From assembly GCA_965603515.1 (NCBI GenBank), contig CBFDDH010000004.1:11929-75928 (forward strand): a stretch of 64,000 bases of DNA. The letters run 5' to 3'. Under the pieces are notes generated by a model, which made no database searches, was not told the DNA's origin, and was given only the letters and a program-made list of their open reading frames with translations. The position numbers and the translations under genes were made by a program. This stretch comes from an uncultured bacterium. Its GTDB lineage: Bacteria; Hydrothermota; Tepidihabitantia; SM23-42. This document shows, piece by piece, positions 812 through 53,821 of the stretch (its first letter is position 1; each line of letters starts with the position of its first letter).

Positions 812-2053
812 ATGAAAAAAATACTCTTACTTAGTCTTGTTATTGGCTTTTGCTCTTTGTCCTTTGGGACATGGGAGTCTGTTGGACCTTATGGCGGTTA
901 TCTGCGGAAAATGGCTGTTGCGCCCTCAAACCAGGGTATTATATATGCATCAGCGAATGGTAACCCTTCACCAATTGTAAAATCTATAGATGGCGGTGCT
1001 TCCTGGAACAGGGTAACATCGATCAATTCATATATATATTCGATGACTGTCGATCCAACAAATCCTGATATCGTATATGCAGGCGGTTATATGCAAGTCT
1101 ATAAATCCACTAATGGTGGCTCTTCGTGGACTGGTTACTCAGTCTCCAATTATTATATCAACCGTCTGGCAGTACATCCAACATCACCTTCGACTGTATT
1201 CGCATCAGGTAGAGTATATACGGGAAGTGTTTATGTAATGGGGTTTTTCAAGAGTACCAATGGTGGCTCTTCCTGGACGAATACCTATCTCAGTGATTCT
1301 AATGGGGTTGCTTATAGTATGGCATTAGATCCATCTGTTCCTGACAATATATATGTCGGCGGGTACTATTATGCAAATTCCACATACCACCCTTCTGTCT
1401 ACAAATCAACTAATGCAGGAGCGAATTTTACTGAAGTATCAACTGGAATAGCATCTTCTAGTTATTATGTTTATGCACTGGCAGTCCATCCAACAACATC
1501 AAATACGATCTATGCCGGGACATACTATGGCGGCATATACCGGACAACGAATGGCGGTTCATCATGGTCATTAGTATCACCTGCAAGCTATCGGTATCTC
1601 TATGACATGTCGACGACAATAGCCAGACCAAATTATGTCTATGTCGGCGCAGATACATGTATATATAGAAGCACGAATTCCGGTTCTACATGGTCAACAC
1701 TCAATTCAGGGCTCAATGGAAAATATAATTATGGCATACATGCCCGTAGTGATCTTGTGTCTCAGGTATATGTATGTAATAACTCAGGCTTTTATGTTTC
1801 CACTAATGCTGGAGCAAGTTGGACAGCTTCAAATCATGGCATAACAGTGAACGGCATTGCCAGTTTCTCAAGTCCGAATACGAACCCGGCAATTATCTAC
1901 ACGTCTTTTGAAGACGTCGGAATCTTCAAAACCACAAATAGTGGCTCAGACTGGACTATATTACCCACACCCTTAGCCTGTGGTGATATATGTTCCTTTG
2001 CTTTTAATAATAGCAACCCTAATACCATCTATGCCCTGGAAGGGTTAGGCTGA
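812..2053 (+). CDS. BNR/Asp-box repeat protein, N-terminal segment (signal peptide; ends at in-frame TGA 2051-2053)
   Basis: Track ORF. N-terminal signal peptide. Multiple Asp-box/BNR repeats (STNGGSSWT, KSTNGGSSWTN, TTNGGSSWS, RSTNSGSTWST, STNAGASWTAS, TTNSGSDWTIL). The same frame stays open after the TGA. Confidence 0.7.
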   Translation: MKKILLLSLVIGFCSLSFGTWESVGPYGGYLRKMAVAPSNQGIIYASANGNPSPIVKSIDGGASWNRVTSINSYIYSMTVDPTNPDIVYAGGYMQVYKSTNGGSSWTGYSVSNYYINRLAVHPTSPSTVFASGRVYTGSVYVMGFFKSTNGGSSWTNTYLSDSNGVAYSMALDPSVPDNIYVGGYYYANSTYHPSVYKSTNAGANFTEVSTGIASSSYYVYALAVHPTTSNTIYAGTYYGGIYRTTNGGSSWSLVSPASYRYLYDMSTTIARPNYVYVGADTCIYRSTNSGSTWSTLNSGLNGKYNYGIHARSDLVSQVYVCNNSGFYVSTNAGASWTASNHGITVNGIASFSSPNTNPAIIYTSFEDVGIFKTTNSGSDWTILPTPLACGDICSFAFNNSNPNTIYALEGLG

Positions 2054-2134
2054 GGTAATGCCGAGCTCTTTAAGAGCACAGACGGCGGGTCTGTCTGGAC
2101 ACAGATTGGGAGTTATTACACGGACGGCGGAGAT

Positions 2135-3037
2135 TTGGTCGCTGACCCCAATAATAACTCAGTGTTTTGGAGTTGTGGCAGATATTACAACGGCAGTTAT
2201 TATGTAATGGAAGCCTCAAAAAGCATAAATAATTGCTCATCTTGGACACGGTATGAACTTACCACAACAACCGGATTTGCTTACACCGTAGAAATCGATC
2301 CGGTCAACTCGAATATTGTATACATTGGTGGAGACGGTGGTATTTATAAAACGACCAATGCTGGTACTTCATGGTCAGGGGCTTCGACTGGTATCACGGG
2401 TATTGTCTACGATATTACGATAAATCCGGACAATACCAGTGTATTGTACGCTGGTTCAGCAAATGGTGTCTATAAAACAACGAATAGCGGCACAAGTTGG
2501 TCGTATACGGGATGCAGCAATGTACGTGGCGTGGTCATTGACCCCATGGATGTAAATACTGTATATGCCGGTACAGGCACTGGTGTGTATAAGAGTACCT
2601 CAGGCGGAAGCAGCTGGTCCGCAATGAATAGTGGTCTTGATGATACCTATGTTAATTGTCTGGGTATACACCCGAGTCTCTATCTTTTTGCCGGAACAGA
2701 GACTGCTAGTATGTTCCGTTGGGATCTTAATATCGGTATCAACGAATTGATAACGGAACGGCTGTTCCATAAGATCTCCATTTCACCTAATCCTACTACA
2801 GGAAAAACCATTTTTGCCTATCAATTAGCTCGAGCAACTGAGGTTAATCTTTGTGTTTATGATATTCAAGGACGCCTGGTCAAAGTACTCGTAAATGGCG
2901 CACAGAATGCAGGGTCATACAATGCAGTTTGGCTCGGGCTTGATAATAGTGACAATGATGTTGCGGCAGGTATCTACTTATGCAAATTCTCGACTGACCA
3001 CGGTACACATATTAAGAAATTGGTCTTCTTAAGATAA
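2135..3037 (+). CDS. BNR/Asp-box repeat protein, C-terminal segment with type-IX-secretion C-terminal sorting domain (same frame as 812..2053; frame already open from 2054)
   Basis: Same frame as the upstream ORF (2135-812 divisible by 3). Codons 2054-2134 encode another BNR repeat (KSTDGGSVWTQIG). More repeats follow (KTTNAGTSWSG, KTTNSGTSWSY, KSTSGGSSWSA). C-terminal ~85 aa (...ISISPNPTTGKTIFAY...GIYLCKFSTDHGTHIKKLVFLR) looks like a T9SS sorting domain. Confidence 0.6.
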   Translation: MVADPNNNSVFWSCGRYYNGSYYVMEASKSINNCSSWTRYELTTTTGFAYTVEIDPVNSNIVYIGGDGGIYKTTNAGTSWSGASTGITGIVYDITINPDNTSVLYAGSANGVYKTTNSGTSWSYTGCSNVRGVVIDPMDVNTVYAGTGTGVYKSTSGGSSWSAMNSGLDDTYVNCLGIHPSLYLFAGTETASMFRWDLNIGINELITERLFHKISISPNPTTGKTIFAYQLARATEVNLCVYDIQGRLVKVLVNGAQNAGSYNAVWLGLDNSDNDVAAGIYLCKFSTDHGTHIKKLVFLR

Positions 3038-5509: not shown

Positions 5510-6553
5510 ATGGCAAAAGACGATAAACAGAAAGTCTTAAATGTAGCTATCAGTCAAATTGAAAAACAATTCGGTAAAGGATCGATCATGCGCCTTGGCG
5601 ATAAAGGAATAAGAGATGACATCAAAGTGATTCCAACTGGTTCAATCGGTCTAGACTTTGCTCTCGGTATTGGTGGATTCCCACGGGGTCGGGTCATTGA
5701 GATTTTTGGTCCAGAAGCAGGTGGTAAGACCACGCTTGCCTTAGAGGCCATTGCTCAAGCTCAAAAAGCGGGTGGAACCGCAATCTTTGTCGATGTCGAA
5801 CACGCCTTTGACCCAACTTATGCGCAAAACCTAGGGGTCAATCTGACCGACTTATTCATTTCCCAACCTGACACTGCTGAACAGGCTCTAGAGATCACCG
5901 AAATACTAACCCGCTCTGGCGGCGTTGATATTGTCGTGCTTGACTCAGTTGCTGCCTTGGTGCCGAAAGCTGAGATCGCTGGAGAAATGGGTGAATTACA
6001 GATCGGCTTGATTGCCCGTCTTATGTCCCAGGCATTGAGAAAACTAACCGGCGTGATCAGTAAATCAAATACCTGTGCAGTTTTCATTAACCAAATACGC
6101 TACAAAATCGGGGTTATTTATGGTTCACCAGAAACAACGCCTGGAGGTATGGCTCTCAAGTTTCACTCGTCAATCCGATGTGATATTAGACGGATCGCCA
6201 CAATTAAGAAAGGTGATACAATGATCGGTTCGAGAACAAGGGTTAGAGTAGTGAAGAATAAACTCGCGCCACCTTTTAAAAAAGTAGAATTCGATATTAT
6301 TTACGGAGAAGGGATCTCCAGATATGGAGAATTAGTCGACATCGGCGTGGACATGAAAATTATCCAGAAAGCAGGTTCCTGGTATTCGTACGGCGATGAA
6401 CGAATTGGTCAAGGACGAGATGCCGTTATTGAATTACTGAAAACAGACAGCGACATAGCTCGCAAAATTGAACAAAAAATATGTAAAGAGATGAACCCTG
6501 TACAAACAATCAAACGTGAAGATAAGCAAGATCGAACCCCAGAAAAAAAATAG
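5510..6553 (+). CDS. recA: recombinase RecA
   Basis: Full-length RecA signature ([31 protein letters not shown]..., Walker [11 protein letters not shown]2 loop region). 347 aa. Confidence 0.97.
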
Positions 6554-7115
6554 GCAACGTTGTTCCATATTTATCGACGGTGAATTCAGAGTTGGATTAA
6601 CCAAGGAGATTGTCATCCGATATAACCTGCACGAAGGTCTTGAGATTACCGACCGAGAATTCGATGAAATTTTGCACCAGGCAGAGAAAGGTAAAATAGC
6701 AAATAGAGCATTTAAAATACTCCATTATCGTGAAAGGTCGGTTGATGAACTCAGGGACAGACTGATCCGTATTGGCTTTGATAATCAACTCGTAAATGAA
6801 CTGGTCGACGAATTGATCGCTGATAAAACTCTTGATGATGAGCGGTTTGCCAATGCCTTTGTAAATGACTATACAAACTTGAGGCCAAAGGGAAACAGAT
6901 TCATCTTAAACGAATTGAATAAAAAAGGTATTGCAAAAGAGACAATAGCAAGGCTGCTAAGCACGAGGGATGAAAGAAAGATGATAAAACAGTATGTCGA
7001 GAAAAAAGCAAGCGGTTTAGACATCAAAAATCCCAAAGAACGTCAAAGACTTGTCCGTCGCTTACTGACTCGAGGGTTCACCCCAGACGTTGTTTATGAA
7101 ATTATTAAAGAATGA
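6516..7115 (+). CDS. recX: recombination regulator RecX
   Basis: Immediately downstream of recA, overlapping it by 38 nt in another frame. ~200 aa helical-repeat protein ([20 protein letters not shown]...), as in RecX. Stop TGA is directly followed by TAA. Confidence 0.85.
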
Positions 7116-18833: not shown

Positions 18834-19016
18834 GATATACCTCGAATGAACAACATCGTGTTTTCTCAACGCTTTACTTTATTTGGGAGATTGCTTTCTC
18901 ACTCCGTTTCTCGCAATGACGAATTAGTATTTCAAAAAAGTGGCAAGGAGTCATGTAAAAATCTGTGTGAATCCACTTTTCATCCGCGTAATCTTTTCGC
19001 CCTTGGCGAAAAAAAA

Positions 19017-19133
<117 letters not shown>

Positions 19134-19142
19134 AATGCTCAA

Positions 19143-19201
19143 ACTCCAAGAACCAAAACCCAAGTCCCAATTTGGAGTTTGGAATTTGGGATTTGGAACT
19201 T
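19143..19201. repeat. CCAAGAACCAA / TTTGGAACTTGG palindromic repeat (copy A, in 23S-5S spacer)
   Basis: ctccaagaaccaaaacccaagtcccaatttggagtttggaatttgggatttggaacttg. Left arm is (ccaaga/ccaaaa)-like units, right arm their inverted complement (tttggag/tttggaa). Family members at 27199 and 32944. Confidence 0.7.
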
Positions 19202-19224
19202 GTAATAAGATGGCGGAAGATCAT

Positions 19225-22270
<3,046 letters not shown>

Positions 22271-24239: not shown

Positions 24240-25559
24240 TCAACTACTTATCCGATTAGTTATCCGCTCTAATCTTTGGAGATATTCGATATCAGCTTTC
24301 TTTAGCCCCTCTACTTTTTCAATTGCATGAATTACAGTTGAGTGATCCTTGCCTCCGAAGAACTCGCCGATTTCCGCGAGCGAAAGATTGAGCATTGTCC
24401 GTATTAAGTACATCGATGTTTGTCTGGCTAAAGCAAGTTTCTGGGTTCGTTTCTTGCCCCTTATTTCGGCTTCGCTGAAACCAAGTTCTTCGATCACGTT
24501 TTTCAAAATTATTTGTTTTGTAATTCTCCTGCCTGAACCCAGAAGGTCTTTTAGAACCTCTTCGGCGAGATGTTCATTGACCTCCTGTCCAGAAAGGGAA
24601 GATACCGCAAGCAGTCTTATCAAACAGCCCTCGAGTTCACGAATATTAGATTTTACACGCGAGGCGATATAGTATGCTACATTAGAAGGGATTTTGATGG
24701 TTTCTGACTCGGCTTTCTTCTGCAAAATCGCAATACGCGTCTCCAGATCCGGGGGTTGGAGGTCAACGACAAGACCACCTTGAAAACGCGATGTTAATCG
24801 TTCCTCAAGAGTTAGGATTTCTCTTGGCGGTCTGTCAGAAGTGATTATAACCTGCTTGCCGGCTGAGTAGAGGTGGTTAAAAATATGGAAGATCTCTTCT
24901 TGGAGCCGTTCCTTGCCATATAGGAACTGGATATCGTCGATCAACAAAACATCCTTGGTCCGATACTTTTTCTTGAATGTCATCTGTTGATTTTTCTGAA
25001 TTGCCTCGATCAACTCGGTCATTATGTTCTCAGCCTGGGTGTAAAAAACATTAGTTTTCTTATGCTGCCGATGCACAAAATTTCCGATTGCTTGCATCAA
25101 ATGGGTTTTGCCTAACCCGACACCCCCGTAGAGAAAGAGTGGGTTATATGCTTCTCCCGGTGCTTCTGCGACTGCCAATGCCGCAGCGTGAGCGAATTCA
25201 TTATTCTTGCCGACCACAAAACTCTCAAAAGTATACCTTTCTTGAAGTTTGGTTCCATCCCGGGCAAGAATCAGACGTTTTCTTTTTTTCTTAGGTCGAT
25301 CTCCTTGTTGTTTCAAAGCCTTAAAAGCAAGCCTTAATTTGTTCCCGTTTAGTTGATGGACCGCTTCTTCTAGGATATTGTAATAGTGTTCTTCGATCCA
25401 GTCGATCTGAAACACATTGGGGAATTCGACAAGAAGAACATCCTCTTTCAATTCAACTCCACAACTACCACCAAACCATGTGTTGAAAGACTGCGAGTTG
25501 ATTCTCTCCTGGATATAATCCAGGACATTTTTCCATGTATTATTTGCTTTTTTATCCAT
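24240..25559 (-). CDS. dnaA: chromosomal replication initiator DnaA
   Basis: AAA+ Walker A GGVGLGKTHL, sensor motifs, C-terminal DnaA-box-binding helix-turn-helix (KKRTQKLALARQTSMYLIRTMLNLSLAEIGEFFGGKDHSTVIHA). Stop TGA immediately followed by TAG. Confidence 0.95.
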   Translation of the reverse strand: MDKKANNTWKNVLDYIQERINSQSFNTWFGGSCGVELKEDVLLVEFPNVFQIDWIEEHYYNILEEAVHQLNGNKLRLAFKALKQQGDRPKKKRKRLILARDGTKLQERYTFESFVVGKNNEFAHAAALAVAEAPGEAYNPLFLYGGVGLGKTHLMQAIGNFVHRQHKKTNVFYTQAENIMTELIEAIQKNQQMTFKKKYRTKDVLLIDDIQFLYGKERLQEEIFHIFNHLYSAGKQVIITSDRPPREILTLEERLTSRFQGGLVVDLQPPDLETRIAILQKKAESETIKIPSNVAYYIASRVKSNIRELEGCLIRLLAVSSLSGQEVNEHLAEEVLKDLLGSGRRITKQIILKNVIEELGFSEAEIRGKKRTQKLALARQTSMYLIRTMLNLSLAEIGEFFGGKDHSTVIHAIEKVEGLKKADIEYLQRLERITNRISS

Positions 25560-52304: not shown

Positions 52305-52456
52305 TTAGACATTATAGGAAACCCTCACCCTATTCCTCTCCCTTAAAAAGGGAGAGGGTGTATTAATGTGATTATTTTCCTCTCCTCTCTGAGGAGAGGA
52401 AAAAGGTGAGGAGTTCATTTGATAAATTCAAAATCAAGGGATAAAGATGTGTCCAA
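52305..52456 (-). repeat. ~150-bp hairpin-containing intergenic repeat element, copy 2 (inverted relative to 15565..15716)
   Basis: Reverse complement aligns with 15565..15716 at ~88% identity, including the two internal GC hairpins (cctctcctcagagaggagagg and ccctctccc-tttt-aagggagagg). Confidence 0.8.
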
Positions 52457-52504
52457 ATTTCTAATGATGACATTGACAACATTGCTCTCTTAGTATATAA
52501 TGCT

Positions 52505-53821
52505 GTGATTATGAGCACCCTTACACAAGATAAAGCATCTGCTGATAATTACGCACGGTTGAAACGCATTTGCGAGAAGAAGGACTATATTTTTAATCCT
52601 AATCAGGATTGGATTGCCCAGGTTATCAGGCTCATGACAAACAATCAAAAGGAATTCGGGAAATATTTTTGCCCGTGTAAACAACACTATCCGGTTGATA
52701 CAAAAGCCGATATTGTTTGTCCATGTCCTACGCTCGATCAGGAAGTCGCTGATAATGGATGTTGCCATTGTCGGCTCTTCTGCAAAAAGGATTTCAAACA
52801 AGAGAAGTTTGATATTCTTGAGACAATAACCTGCCCTGGTTGAGCGTCAAAAATGTCGGCTGCGCAGTTAGCGCAGGCACTTGCAATCCTTGACCGTCCA
52901 GCAGACAAGAATCTATTGGTCGGCGTTAATACCGCAGATGATGCTGGAATTTATAAAATCAGCGAGAATTCAGCGATAGTTTACACGATCGATATTCTTA
53001 CTCCGGTCGTGAGAAACCCGTATATCTACGGCCAGGTAGTTGCAGCAAATTCGATTTCAGATATCTATGCGATGGGCGGTGAGCCCAAGCTCGCCTTGAA
53101 TATCATGGGTTTTCCTGGAAATGGCGACCCGGAAACTATGGGCGAAATTCTACGCGGCGGTCAGGACAAAGCAAGAGAAGCTGGAGTTTTAATAATCGGG
53201 GGGCACACTTTTGTCGCCAAGGAAATTAAATACGGTCTTTCAGTGATCGGCTACATTCATCCGGATAAAATAATCACTAATGCTAATGCAAAACCAGATG
53301 ATCTCATTATTCTGACCAAGCCGCTTGGCACCGGGGTGATCGTTCAATCTGTCTTGGCCGGTAAAAAAGAGGGAGTGGATCTTAATCCAGTTCTTAAAGC
53401 AATGACCATGCTCAATCGTGATGCCTCGGTAGCGATGAGAAAAGCCGCTGTTCATGCGGCTACTGACGTTACTGGTTTTGGGTTAGCCGGGCATCTCGTG
53501 GAGATGGCCGAAGCAAGCCGGGTCGGTATTGAAATTAAACTTGCCAAGCTACCGCTACATGAAAAGGTGATCGAGCTTTTGAAACTTGGCATTGAAGATC
53601 CCGGTATTACAATGAACCGCGGTTCTTTTGCTGACCATGTAACAGGTAAGCATGCAGATGATCTGCGGGCAAAATTAATCTTCAGTTCAGAAACATCGGG
53701 CGGGCTGATTATTGTTCTGCCTGAAGAGAGACTTGATATCTTCAAAAAGCATTACGGCGGTCTGGCACCGGTCATTGGACGAGTAACAAGAGAAAACCCA
53801 GGACAGGTAATTGTACAGTAG
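52505..53821 (+). CDS. selD: selenophosphate synthetase (selenide, water dikinase) with in-frame UGA (52841-52843) read as selenocysteine, and N-terminal ferredoxin-thioredoxin-reductase-like Cys-rich domain
   Basis: Track ORFs 52505..52843 and 52853..53821 share one frame and are separated only by the TGA. Read-through gives ...DILETITCPG-U-ASKMSAAQLAQALAIL..., which aligns with E. coli SelD HGAG-C17-GCKISPKVLETIL and puts the UGA at the catalytic Cys/Sec position. The rest is the PurM-like SelD fold (NLLVGVNTADDAG, SDIYAMGG, TDVTGFGLAGH). Hairpin ctgcgc-agtta-gcgcag lies 16 nt after the UGA. The upstream ~110 aa carry CPC-X13-CPC-X12-CHC. Confidence 0.7.
52860..52876 (+). promoter_or_regulatory. 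putative bacterial SECIS hairpin for the selD UGA
   Basis: CUGCGC-AGUUA-GCGCAG: 6-bp GC-rich stem, 5-nt apical loop containing GU, starting 16 nt downstream of UGA. Confidence 0.45.

Follow-up and report, generated by a model that had tools for sequence, protein, structure and literature searches.

A predicted selenoprotein that joins an FDR-like iron-sulfur domain to Sec-type SelD in an uncultured Hydrothermota bacterium

In a contig of an uncultured bacterium from the phylum Hydrothermota (GenBank assembly GCA_965603515.1, contig CBFDDH010000004.1), we analyzed a stretch of 64,000 nucleotides, from here on the window, in which two adjacent open reading frames (ORFs) of the forward strand raise a simple question, i.e., whether they are two genes or one. 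The upstream ORF (52505..52843, 112 aa) and the downstream one (52853..53821, 322 aa) share one frame, and the sole interruption between them is a TGA at 52841-52843, after which nine more sense nucleotides follow; on this point, the sequence and its translation bear out an earlier note made from the letters of this DNA, as they do for each of its other sequence observations. The peptide obtained by reading through the TGA (shown as an asterisk) is ...KFDILETITCPG-*-ASKMSAAQLAQ..., with a domain of the ferredoxin-thioredoxin reductase (FTR) and ferredoxin:disulfide reductase (FDR) type on one side and SelD on the other. We answer, with high confidence, that 52511-53821 is a single recoded fusion gene, coding for one polypeptide in which the FTR/FDR-type domain is joined to a SelD of the selenocysteine (Sec) type. 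Read as one selenoprotein on the plus strand, 52511..53821 gives 436 residues (110 aa, Sec, and 325 aa) and stops at a TAG (53819-21). The UGA at 52841 is predicted to be decoded as Sec by SelB, guided by a hairpin at 52860-76.

With a Cys in place of the stop, the read-through protein matched the SelD family TIGR00476 with 325.7 bits (cut-off 125), and the match begins at residue 108, that is, before the UGA. The two halves of the PurM-like fold that the note had announced are both present, the N-terminal AIRS domain at 52937..53254 (+; PF00586, 87.5 bits) and AIRS_C at 53291..53815 (+; PF02769, 72.8 bits). The active-site loop at the N terminus of SelD, C-P-G-U-A-S-K (52832..52852, +), combines a CxxU motif and, at U+3, the catalytic Lys, and it is invariant in the 20 full-length sequences of our alignment A4. 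HMMER alignments place the UGA opposite Cys17 of Escherichia coli SelD (3u0o), where the note had put it, and opposite residue 13 (Sec13) of the Aquifex aeolicus enzyme (2yye), while the Lys at U+3 falls opposite Lys20 and Lys16, respectively. Also invariant in A4 are D145, D146, D163, N182, D186 and D321, which align with the ATP- and metal-site motifs of the E. coli and Aquifex proteins (DDA, T-x-D, and N-x-x-S-D). The C-terminal 325 residues thus look like an ordinary SelD with predicted selenophosphate synthesis. It should be noted that this SelD starts earlier than the downstream ORF does, the last ~10 residues of the upstream "FTR protein" ORF being its N-terminal strand.

The TGA (52841..52843, +) is kept across a wide range of relatives. 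We scanned one genome for each GTDB species and obtained 79 loci, and in 24 species representatives from that scan, there was an in-frame "CPG-TGA-ASK" followed by SelD. Two loci fetched via a close SelD homolog (L001 and L002) bring the number of related loci to 26; these come from four or more phyla, including Stahlbacteria/WOR-3, Hatepunaea, Calditrichaeota, Kiritimatiellae and Planctomycetia metagenome-assembled genomes (MAGs), and all 26 have "CPG-TGA-ASK" in frame and conserve the protein sequence before and after the TGA. From the TGA to the annotated ATG, the ASK codons change only synonymously, and in one locus (L012), the Ser codon has even moved from TCN to AGT, which argues for protein-level selection across what would otherwise be an intergenic gap. 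The position of the ATG at 52853 is taken by Leu, Val or Ile in 14 of the 26 loci, so this ATG is no general start. The note had argued for recoding from the fact that a SelD begun at 52853 would lack its catalytic residue. In a collection of 5.8 billion proteins, 35 homologous to the N-terminal ORF were found; of these, 34 end at ...[TA]CPG, i.e., at the UGA, and none is longer than 150 aa.

The note had also suggested looking for orthologs with a Cys codon at the position of the UGA, and there is one. Searched exhaustively with a profile, 1.84 billion representatives gave a single long match (P0178, 450 aa), reading ...LLATILCPGCASKL..., and in its DNA (L084), the equivalent codon is TGC, within a continuous ORF of 450 aa. 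P0178 scores 51.3 bits against PF02943, the FTR family. A further Cys-containing relative is the unfused Cys-type SelD P0107. In another unfused SelD, P0085 from a Logan assembly, the equivalent TGA was called as Trp (...KCAGWASK...), probably an artefact of gene calling with code 4.

A hairpin resembling the selenocysteine insertion sequence (SECIS) of bacteria lies downstream of the UGA at 52860..52876 (+), with a 6-bp stem and an AGUUA loop (CUGCGC-AGUUA-GCGCAG). It begins 16 nt past the UGA and so spans +20 to +36 relative to it; RNAalifold predicts it independently, and the loop reads AGUUR across the relatives, with the G that is expected at the apex of a bacterial SECIS. In the related loci, 98% of the cells are paired, compared to 20-55% in slid-register controls, and three of the six pairs show compensatory changes of several types. 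These changes are non-synonymous on both arms (Ala/Gln versus Lys/Leu), and therefore the pairing has been kept at the expense of the protein sequence. In the TGC-type locus L084, the hairpin has decayed, with the closing pair broken and two pairs turned into wobbles. The catalytic position of the codon, its presence as TGA in 26 of 26 relatives, the covarying hairpin and the TGC counterpart all agree with the Sec reading first proposed in the note.

A UGA can be read as Sec only where the dedicated machinery is available, and selA and selB were found in the relatives. The closest species representative is the MAG CSMAG_2249 (L003 and L043), whose N-terminal domain is 95% and whose SelD is 93% identical, and its contig L043 carries both selA (TIGR00474, 552 bits versus a cut-off of 268) and selB (TIGR00475, 371 versus 242). 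In seven other loci (L014, L021, L023, L024, L079, L081 and L084), the fusion itself is flanked by selB and/or selA; six loci of the distant clade have the end of selB a few hundred bases before the fusion, and L084 is arranged as selB, fusion, selA. Relatives of the window genome thus encode SelA and SelB, the absence of which the note had named among its refuting conditions. At the same time, TGA terminates 10 of the 31 long ORFs in the window, including the full-length genes of EF-G and DnaA, and the genetic code is therefore standard.

The N-terminal domain (52559..52807, +; residues 19-101) belongs to the family of the FTR catalytic subunit, with 51 bits against PF02943 (cut-off 22). Its cysteines are arranged as CPC-X13-CPC-X12-CHC. 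By alignment with the Synechocystis FTR, the first CPC (TGC CCG TGT, 52670..52678, +) would provide one cluster ligand and one redox-active Cys, both Cys of the second (TGT CCA TGT, 52718..52726, +) would be cluster ligands, and the CHC (TGC CAT TGT, 52763..52771, +) would hold a cluster ligand, a catalytic-type His, and the second redox-active Cys. Alignments A1 and A4 show no variation in either CPC motif or in the two Cys of the CHC; the six Cys, the two Pro and the spacing are retained across sequences that are only 36-45% identical. By homology, then, the domain would carry a [4Fe-4S] cluster beside a redox-active Cys pair. The last cluster Cys is ~24 residues away from the Sec.

As for the branch of the family, the six Cys align column for column with the CPC/CPC/CxC of the Synechocystis FTR (1dj7) and of two FDRs, 4tpu and 7pwe, but profile matches favor the latter (58.5 bits for 4tpu and 52.7 for 7pwe versus 28.5 for 1dj7). 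FDRs have been described as relatives of the FTR catalytic subunit, iron-sulfur enzymes by which electrons from ferredoxin reach disulfide proteins (PMC6262447). An AlphaFold model, which covers the N-terminal 112-aa ORF only, had a predicted local distance difference test (pLDDT) of 88 overall, confident for residues 1-100 and ~51 for the last 12, which are SelD derived. Searched with Foldseek, it retrieved only FDR/FTR structures at probability 1.00 (7pwe, 4tpu, 1dj7 and 2pu9; TM-score ~0.61-0.66). Because the FDR structures far outscore 1dj7 and the spacing is X13/X12, the domain seems best named FDR-like. The "FTR-like Cys-cluster domain" of the note thus holds at the level of the family (PF02943, six aligned Cys), although the branch is nearer to the FDRs. 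An identity as a classical plant/cyanobacterial FTR was considered and rejected, given the X13/X12 spacing instead of X16/X8 and the score of only 28.5 bits with 1dj7.

Every component of this protein has known relatives. Like other SelDs of the Sec type (TIGR00476; A. aeolicus 2yye/2zod, with E. coli 3u0o as the Cys-type counterpart), it has AIRS and AIRS_C, the Sec at the Cys17/Sec13 position with a Lys at +3, and a SECIS hairpin just downstream of the Sec codon; it differs in the ~100 extra N-terminal residues that form the Fe-S/disulfide domain and in the loop, C-P-G-U-A-S-K compared to G-[CU]-G-C-K in E. coli. With the FTR catalytic subunit (Synechocystis 1dj7; PF02943), it shares the six conserved Cys and the His, and its CHC is as in the plant/cyanobacterial enzymes, whereas 4tpu and 7pwe have CYC. 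Unlike in FTR, no variable subunit is evident, although no search for its gene was made. The two FDRs, its best matches in sequence and fold, share the CPC...CPC...CxC pattern and are themselves fused to a redox partner, i.e., an electron donor or a disulfide substrate: rubredoxin in 4tpu (M. acetivorans) and glutaredoxin in 7pwe (Desulfotalea psychrophila). Here, a SelD that bears a CxxU loop takes the place of such a thioredoxin-fold or rubredoxin partner. The FTR family has already overlapped with selenium biology in the FtrB double-selenoprotein of the Global Ocean Sampling metagenome (PMC2398784), and recent reviews mention FTR only as a standalone selenoprotein. In the fusion, however, the Sec is in the SelD loop rather than in the FTR active site, and the model of that protein (NF041072) reached only 38.9 bits, compared to a cut-off of 160.

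SelD fusions as such have been described before, with N-terminal partners that are NADH-dehydrogenase-like (the commonest, an oxidoreductase), NifS-like or, in Naegleria, a methyltransferase (Mariotti et al. 2015, PMC4561486). As in those, the extra domain is N-terminal, beside the Sec/Cys loop, and the partner family is plausibly involved in selenium reduction or delivery; Sec machinery is retained in the genomes, here in those of relatives (selA and selB). However, the published fusions are of the Cys type with one exception, whereas the FDR-SelD members are nearly all of the Sec type, and the partner, an iron-sulfur disulfide reductase of the FTR/FDR type, is outside the set of that survey. 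Neither ferredoxin nor FTR is mentioned in its text and 30 supplementary files (PMC4561486), no description of an FTR/FDR-SelD fusion was found in the literature searched, and NCBIfam release 20 has no model with this architecture, which the note had called unusual. The existing model for an oxidoreductase/SelD fusion (TIGR04369) gave 131.6 bits against a cut-off of 700, with the match confined to the SelD part, and no pyridine-nucleotide oxidoreductase or NifS-like Pfam domain was found in the fusion protein. Since each component is a known family, the fusion extends the known theme of redox or sulfur-transfer domains at the N terminus of SelD, and by analogy, it would be a ferredoxin-dependent, flavin-free counterpart of the NADH-dehydrogenase-like-SelD fusions. 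The practical consequence is that public sources break the gene up: its front part is listed as a small "FTR catalytic domain protein", and what is left is a SelD that is truncated at the N terminus and looks catalytically dead. Pipelines that do not model Sec therefore miss both the selenoprotein and its architecture in WOR-3/Stahlbacteria, Calditrichota and related MAGs.

Within the clade, the fusion coexists with unfused versions of both parts. An unfused Sec-type SelD was found in L083, reading MPKGILSFIKCAG-U-ASK with the same loop and hairpin. This locus has two unfused SelD paralogs 4 kb apart (~770-1790 and 6001-7023), one of the Sec type with TGA and the same hairpin and the other of the Cys type. 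As unfused genes of both types share them, Sec, SECIS and the CxxU/CxxC motif are ordinary for this clade, and it is the fusion that is distinctive. A neighbor-joining tree of the SelD parts, to be taken as a rough guide, places the fused genes in two clades, one of which also encloses a few unfused WOR-3 genes, and suggests an old fusion with later fission, the domain having been lost again in some WOR-3 lineages.

Standalone FDR-like paralogs, ~45% identical to the domain, are placed in selenium gene clusters. In L043 and L041, the order is Rrf2 regulator, FDR-like gene, substrate-binding protein, permease, ATPase, selA and selB; the cluster occupies 7318-14694 in L043 and is conserved in WOR-3, being found also in L041, L012, L013, L015, L018, L025, L059 and L065. 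The transporter is an ABC importer of the NitT/TauT type, with a substrate-binding protein that has an NMT1_2 domain (NMT1_2/SsuA-like), a permease and an ATPase. An identification with SaoA/SaoP/SaoX was discarded, all three scores being far below their cut-offs. In L012 and L013, the fusion is directly followed by this same transporter and a standalone paralog. Elsewhere, a selD is close to the paralog: an unfused one 1-3 kb upstream in L015, L046 and L017 (with selA and selB within the paralog cluster in L015 and L046), and a selD not more than 4-5 kb away in L028, L039 and L042 and just downstream in the Aminicenantes loci L035 and L070. A Cys-type SelD of Aminicenantes-type genomes (P0311 and P0327) has a different N-terminal extension, ~45 residues and Cys rich (GHC[VI]C-x6-CPC-x9-C[PT]C-AGE), that gave no Pfam match; the extended genes are at ~1750-2904 in L035 and ~2640-3779 in L070, with the standalone FDR-like gene immediately upstream. 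Another recurrent neighbor is a pair of genes coding for an HgdD-like protein (2-hydroxyacyl-CoA dehydratase D-type, 419 aa) and an ATP-dependent activase of the BcrAD/BadFG type, found at 10264-12294 in L015 and also in L016, L025, L044, L066, L017 and L083, directly after the standalone FDR-like gene or beside selD. The arrangement hints that the selenium genes are linked to a low-potential reduction step powered by ATP.

How reduced, non-toxic selenium is delivered to SelD is still debated. The fusion offers a testable candidate for ferredoxin-linked delivery in strict anaerobes, because the reductase is about two dozen residues from the Sec, its paralogs are found in clusters with selD, selA, selB and ABC transporter genes, and FDRs are known to be fused to their partners. 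By analogy with the nearest solved FDRs, which are fused to a redox partner, and with the NADH-dehydrogenase-like oxidoreductase that is the commonest N-terminal partner of SelD, ferredoxin might drive the reduction of the SelD CxxU loop or of its selenium adduct; this is a tentative proposal, to which we give slightly less than an even chance. Reduced ferredoxin would give single electrons to the cluster, and the FDR-type Cys pair would then reduce a CxxU selenenylsulfide, or a selenium adduct such as a perselenide or a selenotrisulfide, on the flexible N-terminal loop of SelD. The reduced selenium would be released or presented in the ATP site, and the SelD core would turn it into selenophosphate, to be used by SelA and perhaps by other selenium pathways. 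That selenium delivery might be coupled to disulfide reduction was a suggestion of the note, and the gene neighborhood now backs this hypothesis. Taken as a whole, the recoded fusion together with this reductive mechanism seems a rather probable explanation of the locus. A broader version is more speculative and, in our judgment, somewhat unlikely: the FDR-like subfamily, standalone and fused, could be an unrecognised ferredoxin-dependent route of selenium acquisition and delivery in anaerobic bacteria of the FCB and PVC groups. In such a route, the NitT/TauT-type importer would take up a selenium compound, in some genomes with the HgdD-like protein and the ATP-driven activase, and FDR-type chemistry would reduce selenium on the Sec loop of SelD, so that selenide would never be free. 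If this is true, the organisms concerned would provide an answer to a long-standing question, namely which reductant and which selenium donor SelD uses physiologically.

Several observations weigh against the recoded fusion and its proposed role. No selA, selB or tRNA-Sec was detected within the 64-kb window by ARAGORN, Rfam, NCBIfam (ten ORFs of 400-720 aa) and tblastn (with E. coli SelA and SelB as queries), and ARAGORN found no tRNA-Sec in any of 38 related loci. Taken on its own, the hairpin of the window does not exceed dinucleotide shuffles in stability (energy z-score, 0.07), so its support comes from comparison only, and there was no Rfam match to it, either in the whole window at gathering cut-offs or at E<=10 in 52700-53000. 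The SECIS-like hairpin of the note consequently has its position (52860-52876) and covariation in its favor and these last two results against it. With regard to the domain, the Calditrichota/PVC clade, half of the family, has a Glu where the WOR-3 clade keeps the His of the CHC. The Cys at U-3 is present in unfused SelDs of the clade too (C-A-G-U/C), and we rejected the idea that CxxU evolved for the fusion. Finally, the fusion-bearing genomes retain a standalone paralog, and therefore, the two copies may have different jobs. That no tRNA-Sec was found in the DNA at hand could be taken, along with the Trp in the translation of P0085 by one pipeline, as a sign that the UGA is read as Cys, Trp or Gly, by reassignment or near-cognate suppression, or that the gene is a pseudogene. 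We give this hardly any credence: SelB and SelA are encoded beside the fusion in relatives, the hairpin covaries in loci that have TGA and decays in the one that has TGC, reassignment was dismissed on account of the 10 window ORFs that end in TGA as a normal stop, and a pseudogene is excluded since the TGA is kept in 26 genomes. It is extremely improbable, likewise, that there are two separate genes, an FTR-like protein of 110 aa with a true TGA stop and a SelD of 322 aa from the ATG at 52853. That ATG does exist, and the public annotation has precisely this pair ([quoted passage not shown] and "selenide, water dikinase"), but such a SelD would have neither the catalytic Sec/Cys nor the Lys, the ASK codons of the supposed gap are under protein-level selection, the ATG is gone in 14 of 26 relatives, the tail of the "FTR protein" is a SelD strand modeled with low confidence, and a continuous Cys-type ORF exists.

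The function of the FDR-like domain leaves more room for disagreement. It could act on the substrate and not on the SelD loop, reducing an incoming selenium compound (a selenite-derived selenotrisulfide, an imported organoselenium or sulfonate-like compound, or Se(0)) to selenide beside SelD. The standalone paralogs, co-operonic with the NitT/TauT-type importer near selD, selA and selB, would fit with this, as would the HgdD-like protein and the BcrAD/BadFG-type activase often found alongside them and the transporter and paralog that immediately follow the fusion in L012/L013. However, known FTR/FDR enzymes target protein disulfides and not small molecules (PMC6262447; PDB titles), the ~24-residue tether between the last cluster Cys and the Sec loop suggests an intramolecular target, and the Rrf2/CymR-like regulator upstream of the transporter could mean that the latter serves sulfur metabolism instead. 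We consider this supply of substrate unlikely. Still less probable is that the Fe-S/Cys domain guards or gates the Sec, for example by keeping SelD inactive unless low-potential electrons are present, or that it is a purely structural metal-binding module. In favor of such a role, the His of the CHC varies, SelDs of the Sec type that share the CxxU loop but are unfused work in its absence, and some WOR-3 lineages seem to have lost the domain, but the invariance of the six Cys, both Pro and the spacing at 36-45% identity fits a catalytic site made of a cluster plus a disulfide, and selenium genes recur in the neighborhood of the paralog. Among these functions, reduction of the SelD loop or its adduct with electrons from ferredoxin is the one that we prefer.

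The start of the gene had to be moved. The note began the ORF at 52505, which is a GTG, but we place the start at the ATG at 52511 because the GTG is not conserved in relatives, while the ATG and the promoter are invariant. The promoter (52473..52501, +) consists of TTGACA (52473-78), a 17-nt spacer and TATAAT (52496-501), matching the sigma-70 consensus at 12 of 12 positions; both hexamers and the ATG are invariant in eight relatives, and the sequence flanking them is variable. With the ATG only 9 nt past the -10 box, there is no space for a Shine-Dalgarno sequence, and the mRNA of this selenoprotein is thus probably leaderless or nearly so. Further upstream, between the archease gene and the promoter, there are two perfect hairpins at 52335-52357 and 52375-52403, with related sequences (CCTCTCC.../...GGAGAGG), stems of 10 and 13 bp, and 3-nt loops. 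The pair (52335-52403) sits inside a longer imperfect inverted repeat and might serve as two terminators or represent a small repeat element.

Two other features of the window deserve mention. The 23S and 5S rRNA genes (19016-22262, -) and dnaA (24240-25559, -) are close together, with dnaA ~2 kb from the 23S gene; a 16S gene was not found anywhere in the 64 kb, and therefore, the rRNA operon appears to be unlinked. At 812-3037 (+), there is another case of two same-frame ORFs split by a single TGA (2051-2053), downstream of which folding gave a z-score of only -1.07. Sortilin/BNR repeats are found in the first half, and further BNR repeats plus a C-terminal sorting domain of the type IX secretion system (FlgD_ig, Por_Secre_tail) in the second, so that a single secreted protein appears to be interrupted by the TGA, possibly as the result of pseudogenization, a sequencing error or recoding.

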